64,000 nucleotides of DNA from positions 4,874 to 68,873 of the forward strand of contig JAFRQK010000046.1 of assembly GCA_017428635.1 (NCBI GenBank). Reading direction: 5' to 3'. This document shows positions 22,696 to 33,089 of the stretch, piece after piece. How positions within the stretch are numbered: the first letter of the stretch is position 1; each line of letters begins with the position of its first letter. Source of the stretch: Clostridia bacterium (lineage in GTDB: Bacteria > Bacillota > Clostridia > Oscillospirales > CAG-272). The position numbers and the translations under genes are program-made. The notes beneath the pieces were generated by a model, which saw only the letters and a list, made by a program, of their open reading frames with translations, ran no database searches and was not told the DNA's origin.

Positions 22696-22724
22696 ATTAT
22701 AAACCCGCGTTTTTTATTTGTCAA
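22696..22724 (-). promoter_or_regulatory. Putative sigma-A promoter of the T-box/trpB2 unit
   Basis: Minus strand reads TTGACA-17 nt-TATAAT. The -35 box overlaps the last codons of aroQ. Confidence 0.5.
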
Positions 22725-23172
22725 GCGCAGTTTGCGATTTTTTATTCAGCAAATCGTATAAAAATCTCATCGCTTCGGCGTATCCTTCAAGTCCAAGTCC
22801 GACAAAAGAGGTCTCACACGCCGCCCTGACGTAGGAGATCTGTCTGAAAGATTCGCGCTTGCTGACGTCGGAGATATGGACCTCGACCGCGGGCAATCCG
22901 ACAGCTTTCAAAGCATCGAGGATCGCGACTGACGTGTGCGTGTACGCCGCGGGATTTATGACTATCCCGTCGGCATCGTAATATGCCTCACCTATTTTAT
23001 CGACGATATCGCCCTCGTGGTTCGACTGGAAGACCTCGACTTCGACGCCGAGTTCTCCGCCCGTTTCGTTTATCAGATCGACGAGGTCGGCGTACGTTTT
23101 TTTGCCGTATATCTCCGGCTCACGTATGCCGAGCAGGTTGAGGTTCGGTCCGTTTATGACGAGTATTTTCAT
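22714..23172 (-). CDS. aroQ: Type II 3-dehydroquinate dehydratase
   Basis: MKILVINGPNLNLLGIREPEIYG...; 152 aa. Confidence 0.95.
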   Translation of the reverse strand: MKILVINGPNLNLLGIREPEIYGKKTYADLVDLINETGGELGVEVEVFQSNHEGDIVDKIGEAYYDADGIVINPAAYTHTSVAILDALKAVGLPAVEVHISDVSKRESFRQISYVRAACETSFVGLGLEGYAEAMRFLYDLLNKKSQTALDK

Positions 23173-23173
23173 C

Positions 23174-24400
23174 TTATCCTCCGAGTTTTTCGATTATCAG
23201 ATCCGCGGTTTTTTGGGGATCTCCGTCGTTCGGAACGGCGAAGTCGCTTATCGCTTCGTAAAGAGGAGCGCGCTCGGCGAGCATTTTTTCAAGGTCGGCG
23301 TCCGCCGAGAGCGGTCTTCCCTCTCTCGCGAGGTTTTCGGTCTTTCGAGTGAGGTAAACGACCGTGCCGTTCTGGCGGAGCGGATCGAAGTTGTCGGCGC
23401 GCTTTACGATCCCGCCGCCCGTCGTTACGACGGTCGAGGTGAGTTTGCCGGCGGCTTTCGCGGCGTCCGTTTCGAGTTCGCGGAACTTATCTTCTCCGTA
23501 TTTTTCAAAAATCGCGGGAATGCTCTGCCCTGCGGTCTTTTCGATCGTCTCGTCCGTATCGACAAGCTTTTTTCCGAGCTTGCCCGCAAGGATCGCCCCG
23601 ACAGTCGTTTTACCGCAGCCGGGCATACCGACGAGGACGACGTTTCCGACTTCTCTTTTAAGCGCGCCGTATACTTCGTCGATCACGGCGTCGTCTTTTT
23701 CTGCCCCGAGGAAAAGGTCGGAGCTCTTTTTCGCCTGTGCGACGAGCATATAAAGCCCGCCGGCGCAAGGGACCGAAAGGCGTTCCGCGTCGAGGAGAAG
23801 TTTCGTCCTCAGCGGATTGAAAATGAGGTCGAACACGCCTGAAAGGCGCGGGAAAAGCGAAAGATCGACCGGCGAGACGCCGTTGCCGGGGTACATTCCG
23901 ATGGGCGTCGCGTTGACGATTATTTCAGCATCGGCGTGGAGGCCTAAGTTCCCGTAATTGTTTTCTCCGCGGCGCGATACCGTGACGATATCACGCGCCC
24001 CGAGGTCGGAGAGGACCGCGCGGACGGCTCCCGCCGCTCCGCCGTCTCCGAGAACGAGACATTTCTTTTGCCGGAGCGCGATACCGCTTTTCAGAACGGT
24101 TTTGAGAAAGCCGTAATAATCGGTGTTGTCGCCGTATATCTTCCCGTTCCGATGAACGAGCGTGTTCACCGAACCGCACTTTTCAGCGGTCGCGGAGACC
24201 TCGTCGGCGAGACGGTAAGCCGTTTTTTTGTACGGGATCGTTACGTTGAGTCCGTCCCATTCGCCCGAGAGAATGAATTTTTCCGCTTCATCCGGTCCTC
24301 TTTCAAAAAGCGAGTAGCCGTAACCGCCGAGAAGGCGGTGGATCTTCGGAGAGTGGCTGTGAGAAAGCGTTCTTCCGAGCAGACCGAAACGATAAGTCAT
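23174..24400 (-). CDS. aroE/aroK: Fused shikimate dehydrogenase / shikimate kinase
   Basis: I use the ATG at 24400 (MTYRFGLLGRTLSHSHSPKIH, an AroE signature). The C-terminal half has the GMPGCGKTTVG P-loop of AroK. ATGA overlap with chorismate mutase. Confidence 0.9.
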   Translation of the reverse strand: MTYRFGLLGRTLSHSHSPKIHRLLGGYGYSLFERGPDEAEKFILSGEWDGLNVTIPYKKTAYRLADEVSATAEKCGSVNTLVHRNGKIYGDNTDYYGFLKTVLKSGIALRQKKCLVLGDGGAAGAVRAVLSDLGARDIVTVSRRGENNYGNLGLHADAEIIVNATPIGMYPGNGVSPVDLSLFPRLSGVFDLIFNPLRTKLLLDAERLSVPCAGGLYMLVAQAKKSSDLFLGAEKDDAVIDEVYGALKREVGNVVLVGMPGCGKTTVGAILAGKLGKKLVDTDETIEKTAGQSIPAIFEKYGEDKFRELETDAAKAAGKLTSTVVTTGGGIVKRADNFDPLRQNGTVVYLTRKTENLAREGRPLSADADLEKMLAERAPLYEAISDFAVPNDGDPQKTADLIIEKLGG

Positions 24401-24675
24401 TGGTTCGGGTCCCCCTCGATCAGCGACTGCTGATAGGATCTGCTTATCTCGAAAATGCGTGCGTACAGTTCCGTCACGTAACGCCCGAGTCCGGGACCGC
24501 ACATCTCGGCGATCTCTGCGAGCTTTTGACTTTCGCGGAGCGGATCGCAGACCGGGACGCAGTTTTCTTTCTTATATTCCGCGATCTCTGAAGCGATCCT
24601 CAGCCTTTTCTCGAACAGGGGGACGAGTTCCCCGTCGATCGCGTCGATCTTTTCTCTCAGTTCGTTAATATCCAT
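24397..24675 (-). CDS. Chorismate mutase (AroQ class, CM_2)
   Basis: 92 aa starting MDINELREKIDAIDGELVPLFEKRLRIASEIAEYK. Confidence 0.85.
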   Translation of the reverse strand: MDINELREKIDAIDGELVPLFEKRLRIASEIAEYKKENCVPVCDPLRESQKLAEIAEMCGPGLGRYVTELYARIFEISRSYQQSLIEGDPNQ

Positions 24676-24678
24676 ATC

Positions 24679-25698
24679 TTACTCCGTTTTGAGAATTCGC
24701 CCCTCGGTCAAAAGAGCGTCGAGAATTGCGATCGCGCACGCGGCCTCGACCGCGGGGACCGCGCGGAGGACGACGCACGGGTCGTGGCGTCCTTTGACGG
24801 TCAGTTTCACGTTCTCGAGAGTCGAAAGGTCGACGCTGTCCTGTTCTTTTGCTATCGACGGCGTCGGCTTGAACGCCGCCCTGAACACGAGAGGCGCGCC
24901 GGACGTGATCCCGCCGAGGATCCCGCCGTGATCGTTCTTTGTCGTTACTACCATGCCGTTTTCCACGGCAAACGGATCGTTGTTTTCGGAACCGCGCATC
25001 CTCGCCGCGGCGAAACCCGCGCCGAATTCGATCCCTTTAACCGCGGGGATCGCGAAAACGGCTGAGGAAATAAGTCCTTCCATTCCGCCGAAAAGCGGTC
25101 CTCCGACGCCTGCGGGCATTCCTTCGACCGTGCATTCGACGACGCCGCCGACGGAGTCGCCGTCCGCTTTCGCTTTGGCTATTTCTTCTTTCATCGCGTC
25201 GACGTCGCCCGCGACGCCTCCGATCTCGACCGGCTTTGCGTGAACGGAGATACCGTTCTTTGAAAGAAGTCCGATCGCGAGGGCGCCCGCGACGCAGAGC
25301 GGAGCGGTCATCCTGCCCGAAAACGGTCCGCCGCCCGCCATATCGTATCCGTCGCCGTATTTTACGCGCGCCGCGTAGTCGGCGTGGCCGGGACGGGGCA
25401 CGTTTTTCACGTTATCGTAGTCGGACGGGCGTATATCGCGGTTCTTTATTTCCGCTTTTATCACGCCGCCGGTAGTGACGCCGTTTTCGACGCCCGAGAG
25501 GAATTCGGGAATATCGTCCTCGCGGCGAGCGGTCGAGAGCGGGTCTTTTCCGGGCGCGCGGCGGCTCATAAATTCTGCAAGAGCGTCCGCGTCGATCCGG
25601 TATCCCGCGGGGAATCCGTCGATATCGGTCCCGACAGACGGCGCGTGGGACTGCCCCCACACCGTCACCCGGAGCGTCTGTCCGAAAGAACTCTTCAT
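24679..25698 (-). CDS. aroC: Chorismate synthase
   Basis: FGQTLRVTVWGQSHAPSVG...RPGHADY signatures. Confidence 0.95.
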   Translation of the reverse strand: MKSSFGQTLRVTVWGQSHAPSVGTDIDGFPAGYRIDADALAEFMSRRAPGKDPLSTARREDDIPEFLSGVENGVTTGGVIKAEIKNRDIRPSDYDNVKNVPRPGHADYAARVKYGDGYDMAGGGPFSGRMTAPLCVAGALAIGLLSKNGISVHAKPVEIGGVAGDVDAMKEEIAKAKADGDSVGGVVECTVEGMPAGVGGPLFGGMEGLISSAVFAIPAVKGIEFGAGFAAARMRGSENNDPFAVENGMVVTTKNDHGGILGGITSGAPLVFRAAFKPTPSIAKEQDSVDLSTLENVKLTVKGRHDPCVVLRAVPAVEAACAIAILDALLTEGRILKTE

Positions 25699-26957
25699 CT
25701 TAAATCCTCCGTTATCTTCACGTCGCCGCGGAGTTTTTGAAAGTCGTCCCAGAATCCGGGATACGATTTTGCGACCGACTCCGCCCCGGAAAGCGTGATC
25801 TTCCCAGAGCGGACCGAAGCAACGGCGACAGCCATCGCTATGCGGTGATCGGAAAACGAATCGGCCGCGCCGCCGGGAAGTTTTTCTTTGCCGTGAATGA
25901 GAAGACCGTCTTCGGTCTCTTTGATGTCCGCGCCGAGCGCGCCGAGCGAAGAGGCGAGCGCCGCGAGGCGGTCGGATTCCTTTGCCCTGAGGCGCGACGC
26001 GCCTCGGACGACCGTCACGCCTTTCGATACCGCCGCGAGCGCGGCGACCGGCGGGACGAGATCGGGAATATCAGCCGCGTCGAGTTCAATACCGTGAAGA
26101 TCGCAGCCCGAGGCGGTAACGGCGCCGTCTTTGATCTCAACGGACGCCCCCATCCTGCGAAGAATATCGACGATCGCGCGGTCGCCCTGACGCGACGACG
26201 GCGACAGCCCGTCGATGGTTATCCCGCCGCACGCTGCACCTGCGCAGAGCCAGAACGCCGCTCCCGACCAGTCGCCTTCGACGCTGACCGAGCCGGGACT
26301 TTTGAGTTTTCCGGAAACGGAGATCGTCCCGTCTTTGAATTCCGTGCCGATACCGAAACGCGAGAGCGTGTCGAGCGTCATTTCAATATAACCCGCGGAC
26401 TCGGTTTTGCCGGTAAGACGGACGTATCCGCCGCCCGTGACGGCGAGAGCAAAGAGAATGCCGGAAATATACTGTGAGGAGACGTCCGCGCGGATCGCGT
26501 ATTCGTTCCCCGTGAGTTTTCCGCCGACGCGCAGGACACCTTTTTTCGGAGTTTCAAACTTCGCGCCGTGAGCCGCGAGCGCCTCGATCAGCGGCTCCAT
26601 CGGACGGCTTCCCAGCCGTCCCTCCGTTATGAAATCCGCCGTGACGCCGAGCGACGCCGCAACGGGTACGAGAAAGCGGAAAGTCGAACCGCTCTGCCCG
26701 ACGAAAAGTTCCGTCCTATCGGGAGTTGACTTTGCGGGAGTGACGGTGACGCCGTCATCATTTCGCTCGATACCGACGCCGAGCGCGGAAAGGCAGCGGA
26801 GCGTCGCTCCGACGTCGTCGGGCAGTTCTCCGCAAGCCGAGATCCGCGTCGGCCCGTCGGCAAACGCCGAGCAGATCATGACGCGGTGCATATCCGATTT
26901 TGACGGTACGGCGGAGACGGCCCCCGAGAGCGGTCCGCCTTTGATCATGACTGTCAT
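25695..26957 (-). CDS. aroA: 3-phosphoshikimate 1-carboxyvinyltransferase (EPSP synthase)
   Basis: 420 aa with PSKSDMHR, LFVGQSGSTFRF and DHRIAMA motifs. Confidence 0.95.
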   Translation of the reverse strand: MTVMIKGGPLSGAVSAVPSKSDMHRVMICSAFADGPTRISACGELPDDVGATLRCLSALGVGIERNDDGVTVTPAKSTPDRTELFVGQSGSTFRFLVPVAASLGVTADFITEGRLGSRPMEPLIEALAAHGAKFETPKKGVLRVGGKLTGNEYAIRADVSSQYISGILFALAVTGGGYVRLTGKTESAGYIEMTLDTLSRFGIGTEFKDGTISVSGKLKSPGSVSVEGDWSGAAFWLCAGAACGGITIDGLSPSSRQGDRAIVDILRRMGASVEIKDGAVTASGCDLHGIELDAADIPDLVPPVAALAAVSKGVTVVRGASRLRAKESDRLAALASSLGALGADIKETEDGLLIHGKEKLPGGAADSFSDHRIAMAVAVASVRSGKITLSGAESVAKSYPGFWDDFQKLRGDVKITEDLR

Positions 26958-26973
26958 ATCGTTCTCCGGCAGG

Positions 26974-28029
26974 TCACACGCCCGCCCTCATAAGTTCGTA
27001 CAGTTTTTCTTTGCTCATCGGGACGAGTCTGCACTTCCCGATCTTCTCGGGAATAACGACGGTCGTTTCGTCGCCGCGTCTTTTTTTGTCGTGCGTCATC
27101 GCGTCGAAAACCGCGTCGGGGTCGAGCGGCGCGGGGCACGCGACGGGCAGGGACAACCTTTCAAGAGCCGATACGATCGCGGCGGCGGTCCCTTTTTCGC
27201 AAAGACCGAGTTTCCCCGCGCCGCGTGCGACCGTCGCCGTACCGATAGCTACGGCGGCTCCGTGTGAGATACTGAAACCGCTCGCCCTCTCTACGCCGTG
27301 GCCGAACGTGTGGCCGAGGTTCAAAAGGGCGCGTTCGCCGAGATCGAACTCGTCGCGGCGGACGATATCCGCCTTGATCGAGATACATTCGGATATCACG
27401 TATTCCCTGTCGAATCCTTTTCCTTTTTCGTTTATGTGGGAAAACAGTTCGGGCGAGGTGATAATACCGTATTTGAGCGCCTCGGCGCATCCCTCCGAGA
27501 AGACTTCCGGCGTCAGCGTATCGAGCGCGTCGGGATCGCAGACGACTGCGGCGGGCTGGTGAAAAGCGCCCGCGAGGTTTTTGCCCGCTTCAAGATCGAT
27601 CGCGCATTTTCCTCCGACGGACGAATCGACCGCCGAGAGGAGCGTGGTCGGTATCTGCGCGTACTTTATCCCGCGAAGATACGACGCGGCGGCGAAGCCT
27701 GTGATATCGCCGACCACCCCGCCGCCCAGCGCGATCGCGATATCGGATCGGCACAGCGAGCGTGAGGCGAAAAATTCGAGTATTTCAAGGAACGTTTTTC
27801 CGTTTTTCGACCTTTCGCCGTGAGGAAAAGTAAAGGATACGACGCGCAGACCCGTACTTTCGAGCGATCTGACGACTCTTTGTCCGTAAAGCGAAAAGAC
27901 CGTGTCGTCGGAAACGACGGCGGCGATCTTCGCGCCGCGCGCCGGGATGAATTCACCCGCGCGGTCGAGAATACCGCGCCCGATCACGACGTCGTACGGA
28001 GCCGACGCCTCAACTCTTACCGTCTTCAT
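26974..28029 (-). CDS. aroB: 3-dehydroquinate synthase
   Basis: 351 aa with GGGVVGDITGFAAASYLRGI and LNLGHTFGH motifs. Confidence 0.95.
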   Translation of the reverse strand: MKTVRVEASAPYDVVIGRGILDRAGEFIPARGAKIAAVVSDDTVFSLYGQRVVRSLESTGLRVVSFTFPHGERSKNGKTFLEILEFFASRSLCRSDIAIALGGGVVGDITGFAAASYLRGIKYAQIPTTLLSAVDSSVGGKCAIDLEAGKNLAGAFHQPAAVVCDPDALDTLTPEVFSEGCAEALKYGIITSPELFSHINEKGKGFDREYVISECISIKADIVRRDEFDLGERALLNLGHTFGHGVERASGFSISHGAAVAIGTATVARGAGKLGLCEKGTAAAIVSALERLSLPVACPAPLDPDAVFDAMTHDKKRRGDETTVVIPEKIGKCRLVPMSKEKLYELMRAGV

Positions 28030-28880
28030 CCGTCGACCTCCTCTTTTCTCTTTCTTCCCTCTTCGAGAAGCGTCTCGAGCGCTTCTTTGTCCTCTTTTTC
28101 GAGGGCGTCCTTATATTTTCCGAGTTCCACGAGAAAAGACTCTATCTCGGGGAGCAGATTATCTTTGTTCTCAATGAAAAGCTGCGCCCACATCGCGGGA
28201 TTCAGCCAGGCGACGCGCGTCATATCGCGGTAGCTGCCCGCAGAAAAGCCCTTGTGAGCGGCGGCGGTCGGGCTCTTGATATACGCGCTCGAGATGACGT
28301 GAGCCATCTGCGAGGTGAACGCTATGAGTTTATCGTGTTCTTCCGCCGTCGTGACGGAAAATCGCTTCATACCGAGCGGAGAGAGCGCTTTTTTTGCGCG
28401 GTCGAGGAGCGCCGGATCGTCGAACACCGGAGGTACGATCACGAACGGCGCGCCGCGGAACATATCCGCGTCCGAATATTTGAATCCGGAATTGTGCGTT
28501 CCCGCCATGGGGTGGCCGCCGACAAACGTGAAGCCGCTCTTTTCCGCCTCTTCGAAACCCGCGAGACAGACGTCTTTTTTCGTCCCGCAGAAGTCGATCA
28601 CGAGTTTGCCCGCAAGTTTTTTTGAGTTTTCACGAAGATATTTAACGGCGTCCGAGGGATAAAGAGCGATCAGGACGAGGCCGCATGAGGAAAGCGTCCC
28701 CTCGTCGAGTTCGCCGTCGATCGCGCCGGACAGCTCCGCGAATCCGAGAACGGCGCGGTCGCGGTCCGCGCCGTAGGTGCGCCAACCGGCTCTTTTGTAC
28801 GCTTTCGCGGCGGACCCTCCGATTAGACCGAGGCCGACTACGCCGACAGCGCCCGTTTTTTCTGTCTTTTCTTCACTCAT
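28026..28880 (-). CDS. tyrA: Prephenate dehydrogenase
   Basis: GVVGLGLIGGS Rossmann motif and a GGHPMAG catalytic region. Confidence 0.9.
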   Translation of the reverse strand: MSEEKTEKTGAVGVVGLGLIGGSAAKAYKRAGWRTYGADRDRAVLGFAELSGAIDGELDEGTLSSCGLVLIALYPSDAVKYLRENSKKLAGKLVIDFCGTKKDVCLAGFEEAEKSGFTFVGGHPMAGTHNSGFKYSDADMFRGAPFVIVPPVFDDPALLDRAKKALSPLGMKRFSVTTAEEHDKLIAFTSQMAHVISSAYIKSPTAAAHKGFSAGSYRDMTRVAWLNPAMWAQLFIENKDNLLPEIESFLVELGKYKDALEKEDKEALETLLEEGRKRKEEVDG

Positions 28881-29881
28881 TTTTGAAATATCTCTCTGAT
28901 ACCGGCGATCTTTCCGGCGACTCTGTCAAACTGCTCGGGAGTGAGCGACTGCGCGCCGTCGCAGAGCGCGTGCGGGGGATCGTTGTGGACTTCGATCATG
29001 ATCCCGTCCGCGCCGCACGCCGCAGCAGCCATAGCCATGGGCTCGACGAGGCGGTTGAGGCCCGTCGCGTGGCTCGGGTCGACGATCACGGGCAGGTGGG
29101 TCAGTTCGTGGAGCATCGGAACGGCTGATATGTCGAGCGTGTTTCTCGTGTACGTTTCGAACGTGCGGATGCCGCGCTCGCAGAGGATTATCTTGTCGTT
29201 GCCGCCCGCCATAATGTACTCCGCGCTCATGAGAAGCTCTTTCAGAGTATTGGCGAGTCCGCGTTTGAGAAGGATCGGGCGGTCAGTCTTTCCGAGTTCC
29301 TTGAGAAGCTCGAAATTCTGCATATTTCTCGCGCCGACCTGGATCAGATCGACGTCCTCGAAAAGAGGCAGATGGTTCGCGTTCATGATCTCGGTGACGA
29401 TCGGCAGACCCGTCTCTTTCTTCGCCTCGAGCAGCAGTTCGATGCCGTCCGCCTTCAGCCCCTGAAAATCGTAGGGAGAGGTGCGCGGCTTGAACGCGCC
29501 GCCCCGCAGGAGCGTCGCTCCGGACGCCTTGACCGCCTTCGCGACGGCGATTATCTGTTCTTCGCTCTCGACGGAACAGGGTCCCGCGATCACGGCGAAA
29601 TTACCGCCGCCGATCTTTACGCCGCCGACGTCGACGACCGTGTCCTCGGGGTGGAACTTCCTGCTGCACTGTTTATACGGCTCCGTAACTCTTTTTACGG
29701 ATTCGACGATGTCGAGAGAACCGATGAGGTCCATATCGACGTGCGAAGTGTCGCCTATAAGGCCGAGAACGGTGTAATCGCTTCCTTCGGAAACGTGGAC
29801 GTCAAGTCCCTGCTCTCTCAGCCAAACGATAAGTTGGTCTCTCTGCGCCTGAGACGTGCCCGGCTTCAATACCGTGATCAT
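28877..29881 (-). CDS. aroF: 3-deoxy-7-phosphoheptulonate (DAHP) synthase, type I-beta with N-terminal regulatory domain
   Basis: I place the start at ATG 29881 behind GGAGGAG (MITVLKPG...). The N-terminal domain is ferredoxin-like, followed by a KDO8P/DAHP I-beta core (GPCSVES...KPRTSPY...DPSH). Confidence 0.9.
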   Translation of the reverse strand: MITVLKPGTSQAQRDQLIVWLREQGLDVHVSEGSDYTVLGLIGDTSHVDMDLIGSLDIVESVKRVTEPYKQCSRKFHPEDTVVDVGGVKIGGGNFAVIAGPCSVESEEQIIAVAKAVKASGATLLRGGAFKPRTSPYDFQGLKADGIELLLEAKKETGLPIVTEIMNANHLPLFEDVDLIQVGARNMQNFELLKELGKTDRPILLKRGLANTLKELLMSAEYIMAGGNDKIILCERGIRTFETYTRNTLDISAVPMLHELTHLPVIVDPSHATGLNRLVEPMAMAAAACGADGIMIEVHNDPPHALCDGAQSLTPEQFDRVAGKIAGIREIFQK

Positions 29882-29894
29882 ATTTTCTCCTCCC

Positions 29895-29940
29895 AAAATG
29901 AAAACAGGAACCGCGTGCGGAAGTGACCGTGCGGCTCCTG
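29895..29940 (-). terminator. Leader (attenuator) terminator upstream of aroF
   Basis: Minus strand reads CAGGAGCCGC-16 nt-GCGGTTCCTG followed by TTTTCATTTT, ending about 14 nt before the aroF SD. Confidence 0.6.
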
Positions 29941-29990
29941 CTTGATCGTCTTATTTTACAATCCTGTTCCGACAGCAGCACAAATCACTA

Positions 29991-30050
29991 TTACCCGGTA
30001 AAGCGGTAATAGAAATAATAATATGCTGAAAATCGACCGGTAAGGATCAT
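29991..30050 (-). CDS. Putative 19-aa aromatic leader peptide MILTGRFSAYYYFYYRFTG
   Basis: ATG sits 7 nt after GGGAGG, and 8 of 19 codons are Tyr/Phe (YYYFYY run). It lies between the promoter and the leader terminator of the aromatic operon. Confidence 0.55.
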   Translation of the reverse strand: MILTGRFSAYYYFYYRFTG

Positions 30051-30089
30051 TTTTGCCTCCCGACGGGCGAACCCGTCCCTTCTCCGGTA

Positions 30090-30118
30090 ATTGTATCACC
30101 GGCAGTACGATTTGTCAA
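30090..30118 (-). promoter_or_regulatory. Putative sigma-A promoter of the aromatic operon leader
   Basis: Minus strand reads TTGACA-17 nt-TACAAT. Confidence 0.5.
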
Positions 30119-30128
30119 TAAGTTTTTG

Positions 30129-33089
30129 TCATTCGGTCCTCAGCGCCTCGACCGGATCCTTGCGCGCCGCGATCTTCGAGGGGATCTGACCCGCTATCAG
30201 AGTCAGAAGAACGCTGACGGCGATGAGGATGACCGCTCCGAGCAGCGGAAGCTGCGCGCTGAGCGAGGTTATGCCCGTAAGAGAGTGGATCACGATATTG
30301 ATCGGTACCGTCAGAAGGAGCGTAACGAGGATGCCGAAAACGCCCGCAAAGAACCCGACGATGACCGTCTCGGCGTTGAATACGCGGGAAACGTCCTTTT
30401 TAGACGCGCCGATGGCGCGGAGTATGCCGATCTCCTTCGTTCTTTCGAGAACGGAGACGTAGGTTATGATCCCGATCATGATCGACGAAACGACGAGCGA
30501 GATCGCAACGAACGCGATCAGCACGTACGTTATCGCGTTGATGACGGTCGAGACCGAAGACATGATCAGAGCGACGTAATCGGTGTACGTTATTTTGTCT
30601 TCGTCCCGTTCGGCTTTTTCATTGTATTCGTCAATGAGTTCGGAGACCTTGTCTTTATCCGCAAACCTGTCGGAAAACAGTTCGATCGTATCGGGGCTTT
30701 CCTTGTCAACGTAGCCCAGGATCTTCAGGTTGTCTTCATACGTTGACGAAGAGTATCTGTCCGGCATATACCTCTCGCCGTACGCTATCAGAACGTCGTC
30801 GGGCAGCGTATTGAGATCGATCGACGCGATTATCTGATCCATCGTCATCGAGCCCAGTTTTTTACCGACCTCCGCGGCGAATTCGGACGTGAGCGCCTGC
30901 TCCGTCATGGCGCGGAAAGTGTTTTTGATCTCTTCGTCGCTCATTTTCGAAAGATACTCTTTGACCGACTCGAGATCCGTAACGCCCATTCTCGCCGAGT
31001 ACGCTTCCGTAAGCGTCGCCTCTATCTGTTCCCGCGAATAGTTCTCAAGCATCGACGCGACAGCCGATTCAAGATACTCGCGTGACGGGATCGACATAAG
31101 CGCCGCGTATGCCGCCGCGCGCTCCGTATCGCCTAGTCCCTCAAGGAACTCTTTCACCGCAGCGACGGTCTCTTCCGCGTCGTCTCCGTCCTTTTTGAAC
31201 GGAAGACCGGTTATCGCATCCGTTTCGGGGTCTGAAAGCTGCGATCTGAGCAGTTCTTTTTCATTCGTCTTTTCTATGACGTAATCGGTGAGCGCGGAAG
31301 TGTAAAGGACGGTCGCCCCGCGCATAGAGGACATCCCGCTCTCTCCCGATCTGACGATACCGACGATGCGAAGCGGCGTCATCAGATCTTCGTTCCCGTA
31401 GAGGAACGAAAGACCCGTCTCCGTTTCTGTAAGGTCTACCCACGTGCCGTCTTCCTGCTTTGCGTATCTGTCGGGCAAAAGGACCATGTGGAATTCTCTC
31501 CCGATGATCTCGTCGTAGCCCCAGTCGGAGACGGAATCGGTCTCTACGGTCTCGCCTGCGACGGACGCCTCGACGATCTTTACCATTTCGGAAAAAGGCT
31601 TGAATCCGAGAGAGTAAAGAACGTAGTCGCTTATCCGGTCTTTACGGTCCACGACGAGAACGACCTCGTCGAATTTTTCGGGCCATTTACCGCTCAAAAG
31701 CTCGTATCCCGCCTTGACCGATCCGCTGACCGCCTCTCCGTCCTCTCCGGGCAGCATTTCAGCCCACGGGTCGAAGCCCGCCATGGACGTGTACATAGAC
31801 GAGGAATAAACGGAGCTCAACTCGTCCGAAGCGCCCATCTCCTTCATGACCGCTTCCATCAGCTCGTTCATATCCGAGGAGACTATCACTCCGTCCGGAT
31901 CTTTCGAATACACTTTGAGCCCGACGTCGTACCCGTACCTGATCGCGCTCGTATATTTTTTGAATTCTTCGTTCTCTTCGATATACTTCTTGAAAAGCGA
32001 GAGATCGTTCACTTCCGTTTTGACGGAGGCGAGAGAATTCGTCATATCGTAAAGGACGTTTCCGGAGAAAACGCGGTCGCCGCCGCTCTCTTCCCTCTGC
32101 TCGTCCGATACGGAACCGGCGCCCATCAGCGACGAGATAAGGCCCGACATATCGACGGACTCGGCGCGGATCGTGATCGGATATTCCGTGAGAGTGTCCT
32201 CCTGAACTTTGTTGATATATCTGTTCGTCCCGGTTGAAACGGCGAGGATCAGGGCGATGCCGATTATTCCTATCGAACCCGCAAACGCCGTCATGAACGT
32301 ACGGCCCTTTTTCGTGAGCAGGTTTTTCAGCGACAGGGACAGCGCGGTGCGAGGCGACATCGACGGCTTTTTCGAATTCTGCGCCTGTTCCTCCTGCCCG
32401 TCTCCGATCCCGTCGAACGGGTCGCTGTCGTCGGTCACTTTGCCGTCGAGCAGGCGGATGATGCGCGTCGAATAGTCGCGCGCGAGATCCGGGTTGTGCG
32501 TGACCATAACGACGAGACGGTCGGCGGAGATCTCTTTCAGGATCTCCATTATCTGCACGCTCGTTTCCGAGTCGAGCGCCCCGGTCGGCTCGTCGGCGAG
32601 TACGATATCCGGATCGTTGACGATGGCGCGGGCGATCGCTACGCGCTGCATCTGCCCGCCGGAAAGCTGATTCGGTTTTTTTCTGAGCTGGTCGGAGAGA
32701 CCGACGCGGCAGAGCGCATCCTGAGCTCTTTTTCTTCTTTCTTTTTTTGAAATGCCGGACAAAGTAAGGGAAAGCTCGACGTTTTCGAGGACCGTCTGAT
32801 GAGGGATAAGATTATAATTCTGAAAAACGAATCCGACGGAATGGTTGCGGTATGCGTTCCAGTCCGCCTCCGTGAACTTCTCGGTCGTTTTCCCCCGAAC
32901 GGTCAGAGTTCCCGCGTCGTAGCGGTCGAGCCCGCCGAGAATATTGAGAAGAGTCGTTTTGCCGCATCCGGAAGGTCCGAGGATCGACACGAACTCGTTT
33001 TTTCTGAAACCGACGGTGACGCCGTCAAGAGCGCGGATCCTCTCGTCTCCGAGACGGTATTCCTTTACTATCCCTTCAAGTTTTATCAT
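30129..33089 (-). CDS. Fused ABC ATPase / FtsX-type permease (MacB-like) with a very large periplasmic/extracellular region
   Basis: [11 protein letters not shown]...GPSGCGKTT...[14 protein letters not shown] at the N-terminus and four FtsX-like TM helices at the C-terminus. The track ORF begins 21 nt further upstream, at 33110. Confidence 0.85.

Follow-up and report, generated by a model that had tools for sequence, protein, structure and literature searches.

A candidate tyrosine/phenylalanine leader-peptide attenuator upstream of the aroF operon in Clostridia

The leader that separates a promoter from aroF, the first gene of an aromatic biosynthesis operon, raises the question of which signal decides whether transcription continues into the operon. 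The window, i.e., the whole stretch of 64,000 nucleotides that was analyzed, carries the regulated operon on the minus strand (22714 to 29881), as do all features described below. NCBIfam and Pfam scans identified eight genes, the number given in the first-pass annotation, namely, aroF (29881-28877), tyrA (28880-28026), aroB (28029-26974), aroA (26957-25695), aroC (25698-24679), a type II chorismate mutase (CM_2) of 92 aa (24675-24397), an aroE-aroK fusion (ending at 23174, with the longest frame from GTG 24502), and aroQ (23172-22714). According to this gene content, the products of the operon are chorismate and Tyr. As judged from the sequence and its relatives, the element upstream is very probably a ribosome-mediated (leader-peptide) transcription attenuator reporting the supply of charged tRNA-Tyr and tRNA-Phe. 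It combines the features by which this class of attenuator is recognized: a short open reading frame (ORF) with its own ribosome-binding site, a cluster of cognate codons, an intrinsic terminator, and predicted, mutually exclusive 1:2, 2:3, and 3:4 helices.

The promoter, both Shine-Dalgarno (SD) sequences, the 19-codon ORF with five Tyr and three Phe, and the terminator were all found where the first-pass annotation had placed them. The sigma-70-type promoter consists of TTGACA (30118-30113), a 17-nt spacer, and TACAAT (30095-30090), agrees with the consensus at 11 of 12 positions, and carries a TG that extends the -10 element; a TTGACA...TAnAnT promoter occupies the equivalent relative position in the aroF upstream regions of most relatives. 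Transcription probably starts near 30083, about 7 nt past TACAAT. Folding placed a 5'-proximal stem-loop, GACGGG-UUCG-CCCGUC (30062 to 30077), directly against the leader SD GGGAGG (30056 to 30061), which lies 5 nt before the ATG (30050-30048). The closest relatives have a hairpin of other sequence before GGGAGG (GACGGA..UCCGUC in locus L003 and GGAACGCG..CGCGUUCC in L005), and the stem-loop is missing in more distant relatives; it may act as a stabilizer or provide SD context.

The leader ORF as read from the sequence (29991 to 30050, 19 codons plus TAA) encodes MILTGRFSAYYYFYYRFTG, with the run YYYFYY at 30023-30006. Its stop codon TAA (29993-29991) is followed by in-frame TAG and TGA (29990-29985), and the ORF is presumably translated. 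Genome-wide (2.27 Mb), it was the sole short ORF with an SD and ATG and at least 7/8 aromatic codons. A second aromatic upstream ORF (uORF) candidate in the genome, on contig C14, was rejected as antisense to the start of a gene. The leader codons (30006-30032) are the minor synonyms of this genome, with four UAU to one UAC and two UUU to one UUC, compared to 75% UAC and 78% UUC use in ten neighboring genes. This minor-codon use is likely due to the conservation of the A/U-rich 1:2 helix at the nucleotide level.

The intrinsic terminator (29895 to 29943) has a GC-rich stem of 13 bp, in which 29943-29931 pairs with 29914-29902, and then the U-tract UUUUCAUUUU to 29895. The terminator helix (3:4) had an energy of -25 to -26 kcal/mol, and the whole leader folded better than its shuffles (z = -3.1). 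A simple terminator scanner made no call on the aroF-leader terminator because the terminator loop is long and internally paired. The aroF SD (29894-29887) and ATG (29881) follow directly.

Three segments upstream of the terminator 3' arm can form alternative helices. Segment 1, CAGCAUAUUAUUAUUUCUAUUACC (30005 to 30028), encodes AYYYFYY, thus holding the Tyr/Phe codons, and pairs with segment 2 in the minimum free energy fold. Segment 2, GGUAAUAGUGAUUUGUGCUGCUG (29973 to 29995; core stretch GGUAAUAGUGAUUUGUGCUGC, 29995-29975), is the switch strand, which can pair with either segment 1 or segment 3; all three stop codons, UAA-UAG-UGA, fall within it, so that a ribosome positioned at the stop would cover it. 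Segment 3, GCAGGAGCCGCACGGUCACU (29922 to 29941), comprises the 5' arm and loop of the terminator and pairs either with segment 2, as an antiterminator, or with segment 4. The core of the antiterminator is GUGAUUUGUGC (29988-29978) with GCACGGUCAC (29932-29923), and its longer extent is GUGAUUUGUGC(UGC) (29988-29975) with the terminator 5' arm and loop (29941-29922). The duplex energies were -17.3 kcal/mol for 1:2, -19.6 kcal/mol for 2:3, and -26.2 kcal/mol for 3:4.

The effect of ribosome position was followed in constrained folds of a nascent transcript ending just before the 3' arm, with a ribosome footprint of 29 nt. With no ribosome, 1:2 formed and segment 3 was free; placing the A site at Y11, F13, or Y15 led to the 2:3 antiterminator; and a ribosome at the stop codon covered segment 2, and no 2:3 helix formed. 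In full-length equilibrium folds, the terminator (-26 kcal/mol) always outcompeted the antiterminator (-20 kcal/mol), so the switch has to be kinetic, as in trp.

In the proposed mechanism, the leader of 19 codons would be translated while RNA polymerase moves on, with segment 2 as the switch. When Tyr/Phe are scarce, the ribosome would stall within YYYFYY and cover segment 1, and segment 2, once free, would pair with segment 3 as soon as the latter is made, blocking the terminator and allowing transcription of the eight-gene aroF-tyrA-aroBAC-CM-aroEK-aroQ operon. When Tyr/Phe are plentiful, the ribosome would reach UAA-UAG-UGA inside segment 2 and mask it, the 3:4 terminator would form, and transcription would end at the U-tract. 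If the leader is not translated, 1:2 would pair and 3:4 would terminate. On this model, read-through is expected to respond to Tyr/Phe.

Conservation of the element was analyzed in aroF loci gathered from 40 relatives and 80 named genomes, the latter including Oscillospiraceae, Acutalibacteraceae, Ruminococcus, Lachnospiraceae, Christensenellaceae, and Anaerovoracaceae; they include carriers in culture, namely, Hominicoprocola fusiformis CLA-AA-H269 (L035), Angelakisella massiliensis Marseille-P3217 (L072), and Pseudoflavonifractor sp. AF19-9AC (L069). A uORF with an SD, an ATG, and at least 5/8 aromatic codons was present in 82 of 104 distinct aroF upstream regions of related Clostridia, compared to 9 of 2080 dinucleotide shuffles (0.4%) and none of 1573 windows elsewhere in the same loci. 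An intrinsic terminator preceded aroF in 85 of the 88 leaders with an aromatic uORF. These counts and the helix co-variation reported below support leader-peptide attenuation sensing Tyr/Phe, as the first-pass annotation had proposed. Its suggested check on the conservation of the ORF came out in favor as well, with the SD, ATG, in-frame aromatic run, and downstream terminator kept before aroF orthologues in many genera.

The 86 distinct aromatic-rich leader peptides among the relatives contained 366 Tyr, 394 Phe, and 8 Trp residues. Their length (14 to 66 aa) and flanking residues varied, and aromatic composition alone was kept. Runs of Tyr/Phe, at times with Trp, persisted despite nucleotide change (MKTTVQFSAYYFYYYFYYFK, MKPNQTARYYYFYYFFWNK, MFINCVASKYYYSYYFRKK, and MKKNFFAVEYYYFYFFMHKK), which marks a translated sensor ORF and not an RNA with a structural role alone.

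Co-variation among the relatives is seen in all three helices. Thirty leaders were aligned with MAFFT in an alignment (A1) that was not fitted to any structure, and segment 2 was the most conserved leader stretch in it. RNAalifold on A1 recovered the terminator alone and no 1:2 or 2:3 helix; because MAFFT misregisters region 1 and the terminator loop in some rows, the structures were entered by hand from the fold of the window. With the 1:2 and 3:4 structure, 82.6% of cells in A1 were paired, compared to 32 to 55% when it was slid, and the segment 1 (1:2) cells were 74 to 88% paired, compared to 32 to 55% when slid. For the 2:3 helix, 78.5% of cells were paired (34 to 50% when slid), and 13 double-change cells were counted against 4.3 in shuffles, with none of 500 shuffles reaching 13. 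The consensus stem of the terminator had compensatory changes in 8/8 pairs.

The 2:3 duplex formed in 30/30 aligned leaders at -10 to -21 kcal/mol, with compensatory changes: GUGAU/AUCAC in the genus of the window was replaced elsewhere by GUAAU with AUUAC or GUUAC, CUAAU/GUUAG, GCGAU/AUCGC, and GUUAAU/AUUAAC. As a non-cognate control, segment 2 of one locus was offered the terminator of another locus. Cognate 2:3 pairs averaged -15.0 kcal/mol compared to -11.0 kcal/mol for non-cognate pairs, with a residual below 0 in 78 of 84 loci (p = 6e-14, a type of value that overstates independence here, many of the 84 loci being related). Similarly, cognate 1:2 pairs averaged -18.4 kcal/mol compared to -14.1 kcal/mol, with a residual below 0 in 76 of 84 loci.

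Less specific measures gave smaller differences. A generic test of pairing between the terminator 5' arm and upstream sequence in 84 leaders was marginal (0.59 versus 0.55 with shuffled spacers, p = 0.014). In a three-state folding score on 84 leaders, the stalled state exceeded the free state in 66 and the stop state in 58, with the shuffled-spacer control marginally lower. Given this near equality of the control, the generic score was set aside as evidence, and the cognate test and pair counts were used instead.

The element is not universal among close relatives. In a congener (G014), the aroF of locus L004 (G014:C97) is 90% identical and has no promoter, uORF, or terminator; it starts 26 nt past the stop of an upstream ABC-transporter permease gene. 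The leader is either lost or was never gained there, and its absence indicates that the element is dispensable in some lineages. On five contigs labeled Bacteroidaceae or Spirochaetales (L054, L076, L084, L092, and L105), aroF genes 69 to 74% identical had no aromatic leader, which could reflect lateral transfer of aroF without the leader or mis-binning.

Other explanations of the same features were weighed. The conserved hairpins could be a protein- or ligand-binding RNA (riboswitch, TRAP/PyrR-like, or T-box-like) that controls the terminator, with the ORF being incidental. Such an RNA would account for the strong nucleotide conservation of segments 1 and 2 across genera and for the GUAAUAG box, which is not read as stops in some relatives and would therefore be kept for RNA reasons; the UAU/UAC/UUU triplet repeats could in principle bind a protein. 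However, it would have no need of an aromatic run that stays in frame despite nucleotide divergence or of the SD and in-frame ATG kept in 82 of 104 loci, and no Rfam family, T-box included, matched the leader even at E values up to 10. For TRAP-type control in particular, the leader has one UAG and one GAG, compared to nine to eleven (G/U)AG triplets spaced by 2 to 3 nt. This explanation was considered very unlikely. No more credence was given to a uORF that senses Tyr/Phe by another route, i.e., a Rho entry site, mRNA stability, or translational control of aroF. The terminator U-tract ends only about 1 nt from the aroF SD, as translational control might have it, but this SD lies outside the terminator stem, 85 of 88 leaders have a canonical GC-rich hairpin with a U-tract, and the terminator 5' arm co-varies with segment 2 exactly as competition between terminator and antiterminator requires. 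That the ORF encodes a functional small hydrophobic peptide and is no sensor agrees with its conservation and aromatic richness, but is exceedingly improbable in view of the variable length and flanks described above and of the position, which is always in the promoter-to-terminator interval before aroF.

A further alternative concerns the switch itself. The first-pass annotation had proposed two antiterminator pairings, one between CGGAACAGGA (29971-29962) and the 3' arm of the terminator and the other between CUGCU and AGCAG. The CGGAACAGGA helix is present in the window at -12.6 kcal/mol and, in the two or three most closely related genomes, is kept as G-U pairs. It is, however, about 7 kcal/mol weaker than 2:3, it competes for the arm that is transcribed last, when the 5' arm is already in place, and the CGGAACAGGA segment forms small local hairpins in folds. 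Past the three closest genomes, the spacer that bears it is unrelated in all other relatives, whereas the parts relevant to regulation are conserved. These pairings are probably wrong as antiterminators, and we give a switch based on them hardly any weight. The antiterminator that is both conserved and co-varying is GUGAUUUGUGC/GCACGGUCAC.

Leader-peptide attenuation is a textbook mechanism, known from the enterobacterial pheL-pheA, pheM-pheST, and trpL systems. The Clostridia leader shares with pheL, pheM, and trpL the clustered codons in segment 1, the alternative 1:2, 2:3, and 3:4 helices, the stop codon masking segment 2, and the intrinsic terminator. In contrast, it has no sequence or covariance-model similarity to them, it would sense both Tyr and Phe (in some relatives, Trp too), and it would control the whole common pathway plus tyrA and not a single terminal branch. 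Within the Firmicutes, the Lactococcus leu/phe leader (Rfam) is a precedent for an amino acid leader peptide. Another is provided by the His leader peptides of Bacillus (hisS/hisZ), presented as the first "regular" Firmicute leader peptides (Naville and Gautheret 2010, PMC2965389). Both use leader-peptide attenuation in place of T-boxes in Firmicutes, as the Clostridia leader would, but they belong to other amino acids and operons and have no sequence relationship to it. The remark in the first-pass annotation that such control is unusual in Firmicutes was therefore overstated, with Firmicute leader peptides reported since 2010 (PMC2965389) and the present element being common in Clostridia, as reported below.

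Two described leaders precede the same gene. In Corynebacterium glutamicum, the aroF operon is preceded by the aroR leader, which has an F-Y-F motif (Neshat et al. 2014, as summarized in PMC11802643). According to that summary, aroR is likewise a short ORF with Phe/Tyr codons before a DAHP synthase gene, on which ribosome stalling raises transcription of the aroF operon. As far as its description goes, aroR differs from the Clostridia leader in belonging to the Actinobacteria and in having three regulatory codons compared to a run of six to eight; it is described there as responsive to Phe and not to Tyr, whereas the Clostridia leader is dominated by Tyr and drives tyrA. Brewer et al. (2021, PMC8632094) described the predicted motif uORFC-13-1, a Phe-codon uORF with a terminator, from Acholeplasma and environmental sequences, in which it is found exclusively upstream of aroF. 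As in the Clostridia leader, a promoter, a ribosome-binding site, a start codon, and Phe codons stand directly ahead of an intrinsic terminator (PMC8632094), but the motif comprises 24 sequences, from one Mollicutes genus and from environmental DNA without assignment, and its defining feature is a U-run that encodes one or more Phe. The Clostridia family has Tyr-rich runs and the conserved GUAAUAGUGAUUUGUGC switch strand; compared by description alone, the two may be the same motif.

Rfam cmscan of 29700-30300 with E values up to 10 returned only two chance-level matches on the opposite strand, and no match of the leader to the Phe, Trp, His, Leu, Thr, or leu/phe leader families or to the T-box (RF00230) was obtained. 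No description of the Clostridia aroF-leader family was found in the literature, a search with incomplete coverage that amounts to absence of evidence only.

A covariance model, R1, was built from the leaders, and genomes were searched with strict filters. R1 matched 58 of 401 genomes and 35 of 179 genera in the order sample, 51 of 400 genomes and 30 of 217 genera in the class sample, and 11 of 401 genomes and 6 of 278 genera in the phylum-wide sample. The prevalence was about 13 to 14% of sampled genomes, order and class alike, nearly always with one match per genome. Among the best matches outside the order, 16 of 16 lay directly upstream of an aroF orthologue (60 to 79% identity) and had an aromatic uORF. 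The true prevalence is higher, since the model misses leaders of the diverged type found at L021 and L022 (family f1, genera g2 and g3), and genus g3 remained without a match. Weak secondary matches in three genomes (G518, G665, and G1103) were rejected for having no uORF, one of them being an ordinary terminator.

A genuine second copy was found in another Clostridia family (L128, G757:C158, 258-470), consisting of a promoter, an SD, the Phe-dominated uORF MFLSVLFVFICLYFYFFAFLFCKSKSVLCCG, and a terminator. The gene downstream (503-1816) encodes a PaaK-type phenylacetate-CoA ligase (TIGR02155, E = 2e-168) and not aroF. On balance, we lean towards the view that the locus belongs to a large uncatalogued family of Tyr/Phe(/Trp) attenuators with a GUAAUAGUGAUUUGUGC-like switch strand. 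This family would be among the main regulators of the common aromatic pathway in Clostridia of the gut and rumen, would reach across many families of the class and into some lineages outside it, and would on at least one occasion have been recruited to a PaaK-type gene. If this is true, the recruitment would place the salvage of aromatics from phenylacetate under the same signal of tRNA charging.

The mechanism is an established one, and the value of the element lies mainly in annotation and in understanding amino acid control in gut anaerobes. A leader peptide of the Proteobacteria type appears to control entry into the entire shikimate operon in a considerable share of gut and rumen Clostridia, which corrects the assumption that Firmicutes control aromatic biosynthesis only via T-boxes, TRAP, or protein repressors. 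In metagenome-assembled genomes, hundreds of intergenic regions and mini-ORFs now labeled "hypothetical" could be annotated with the seed alignment and model. Premature termination was observed experimentally in the 5' untranslated region of aroF in Clostridioides difficile, with no mechanism assigned (Fuchs et al.), and the Clostridia leader offers a candidate mechanism for it. As a compact natural Tyr/Phe sensor, the leader could also serve as a reporter in anaerobes.

Downstream of the operon, the T-box noted in the first-pass annotation before trpB2 was recovered with an Rfam score of 98.9 bits (RF00230, 22447-22690), between aroQ and the stand-alone trpB2. It was the sole non-tRNA Rfam match in the whole window at gathering thresholds. 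With the T-box beside the leader-controlled operon, this gene string would contain two adjacent sensors of tRNA charge that differ in type. A search of the whole genome (G000, 96% complete) for prephenate dehydratase (PF00800) gave no match, while the control search hit 14/14 reference genomes; the operon under the leader has chorismate mutase and tyrA. By the usual route, this organism may produce Tyr and no Phe, and a leader dominated by Tyr would agree with that. Within the operon, the chorismate mutase ORF overlaps the longest aroE-aroK frame, in which the shikimate dehydrogenase domain begins at about residue 37 to 41; given this late domain start, the true start of aroE-aroK is probably downstream of the chorismate mutase stop.
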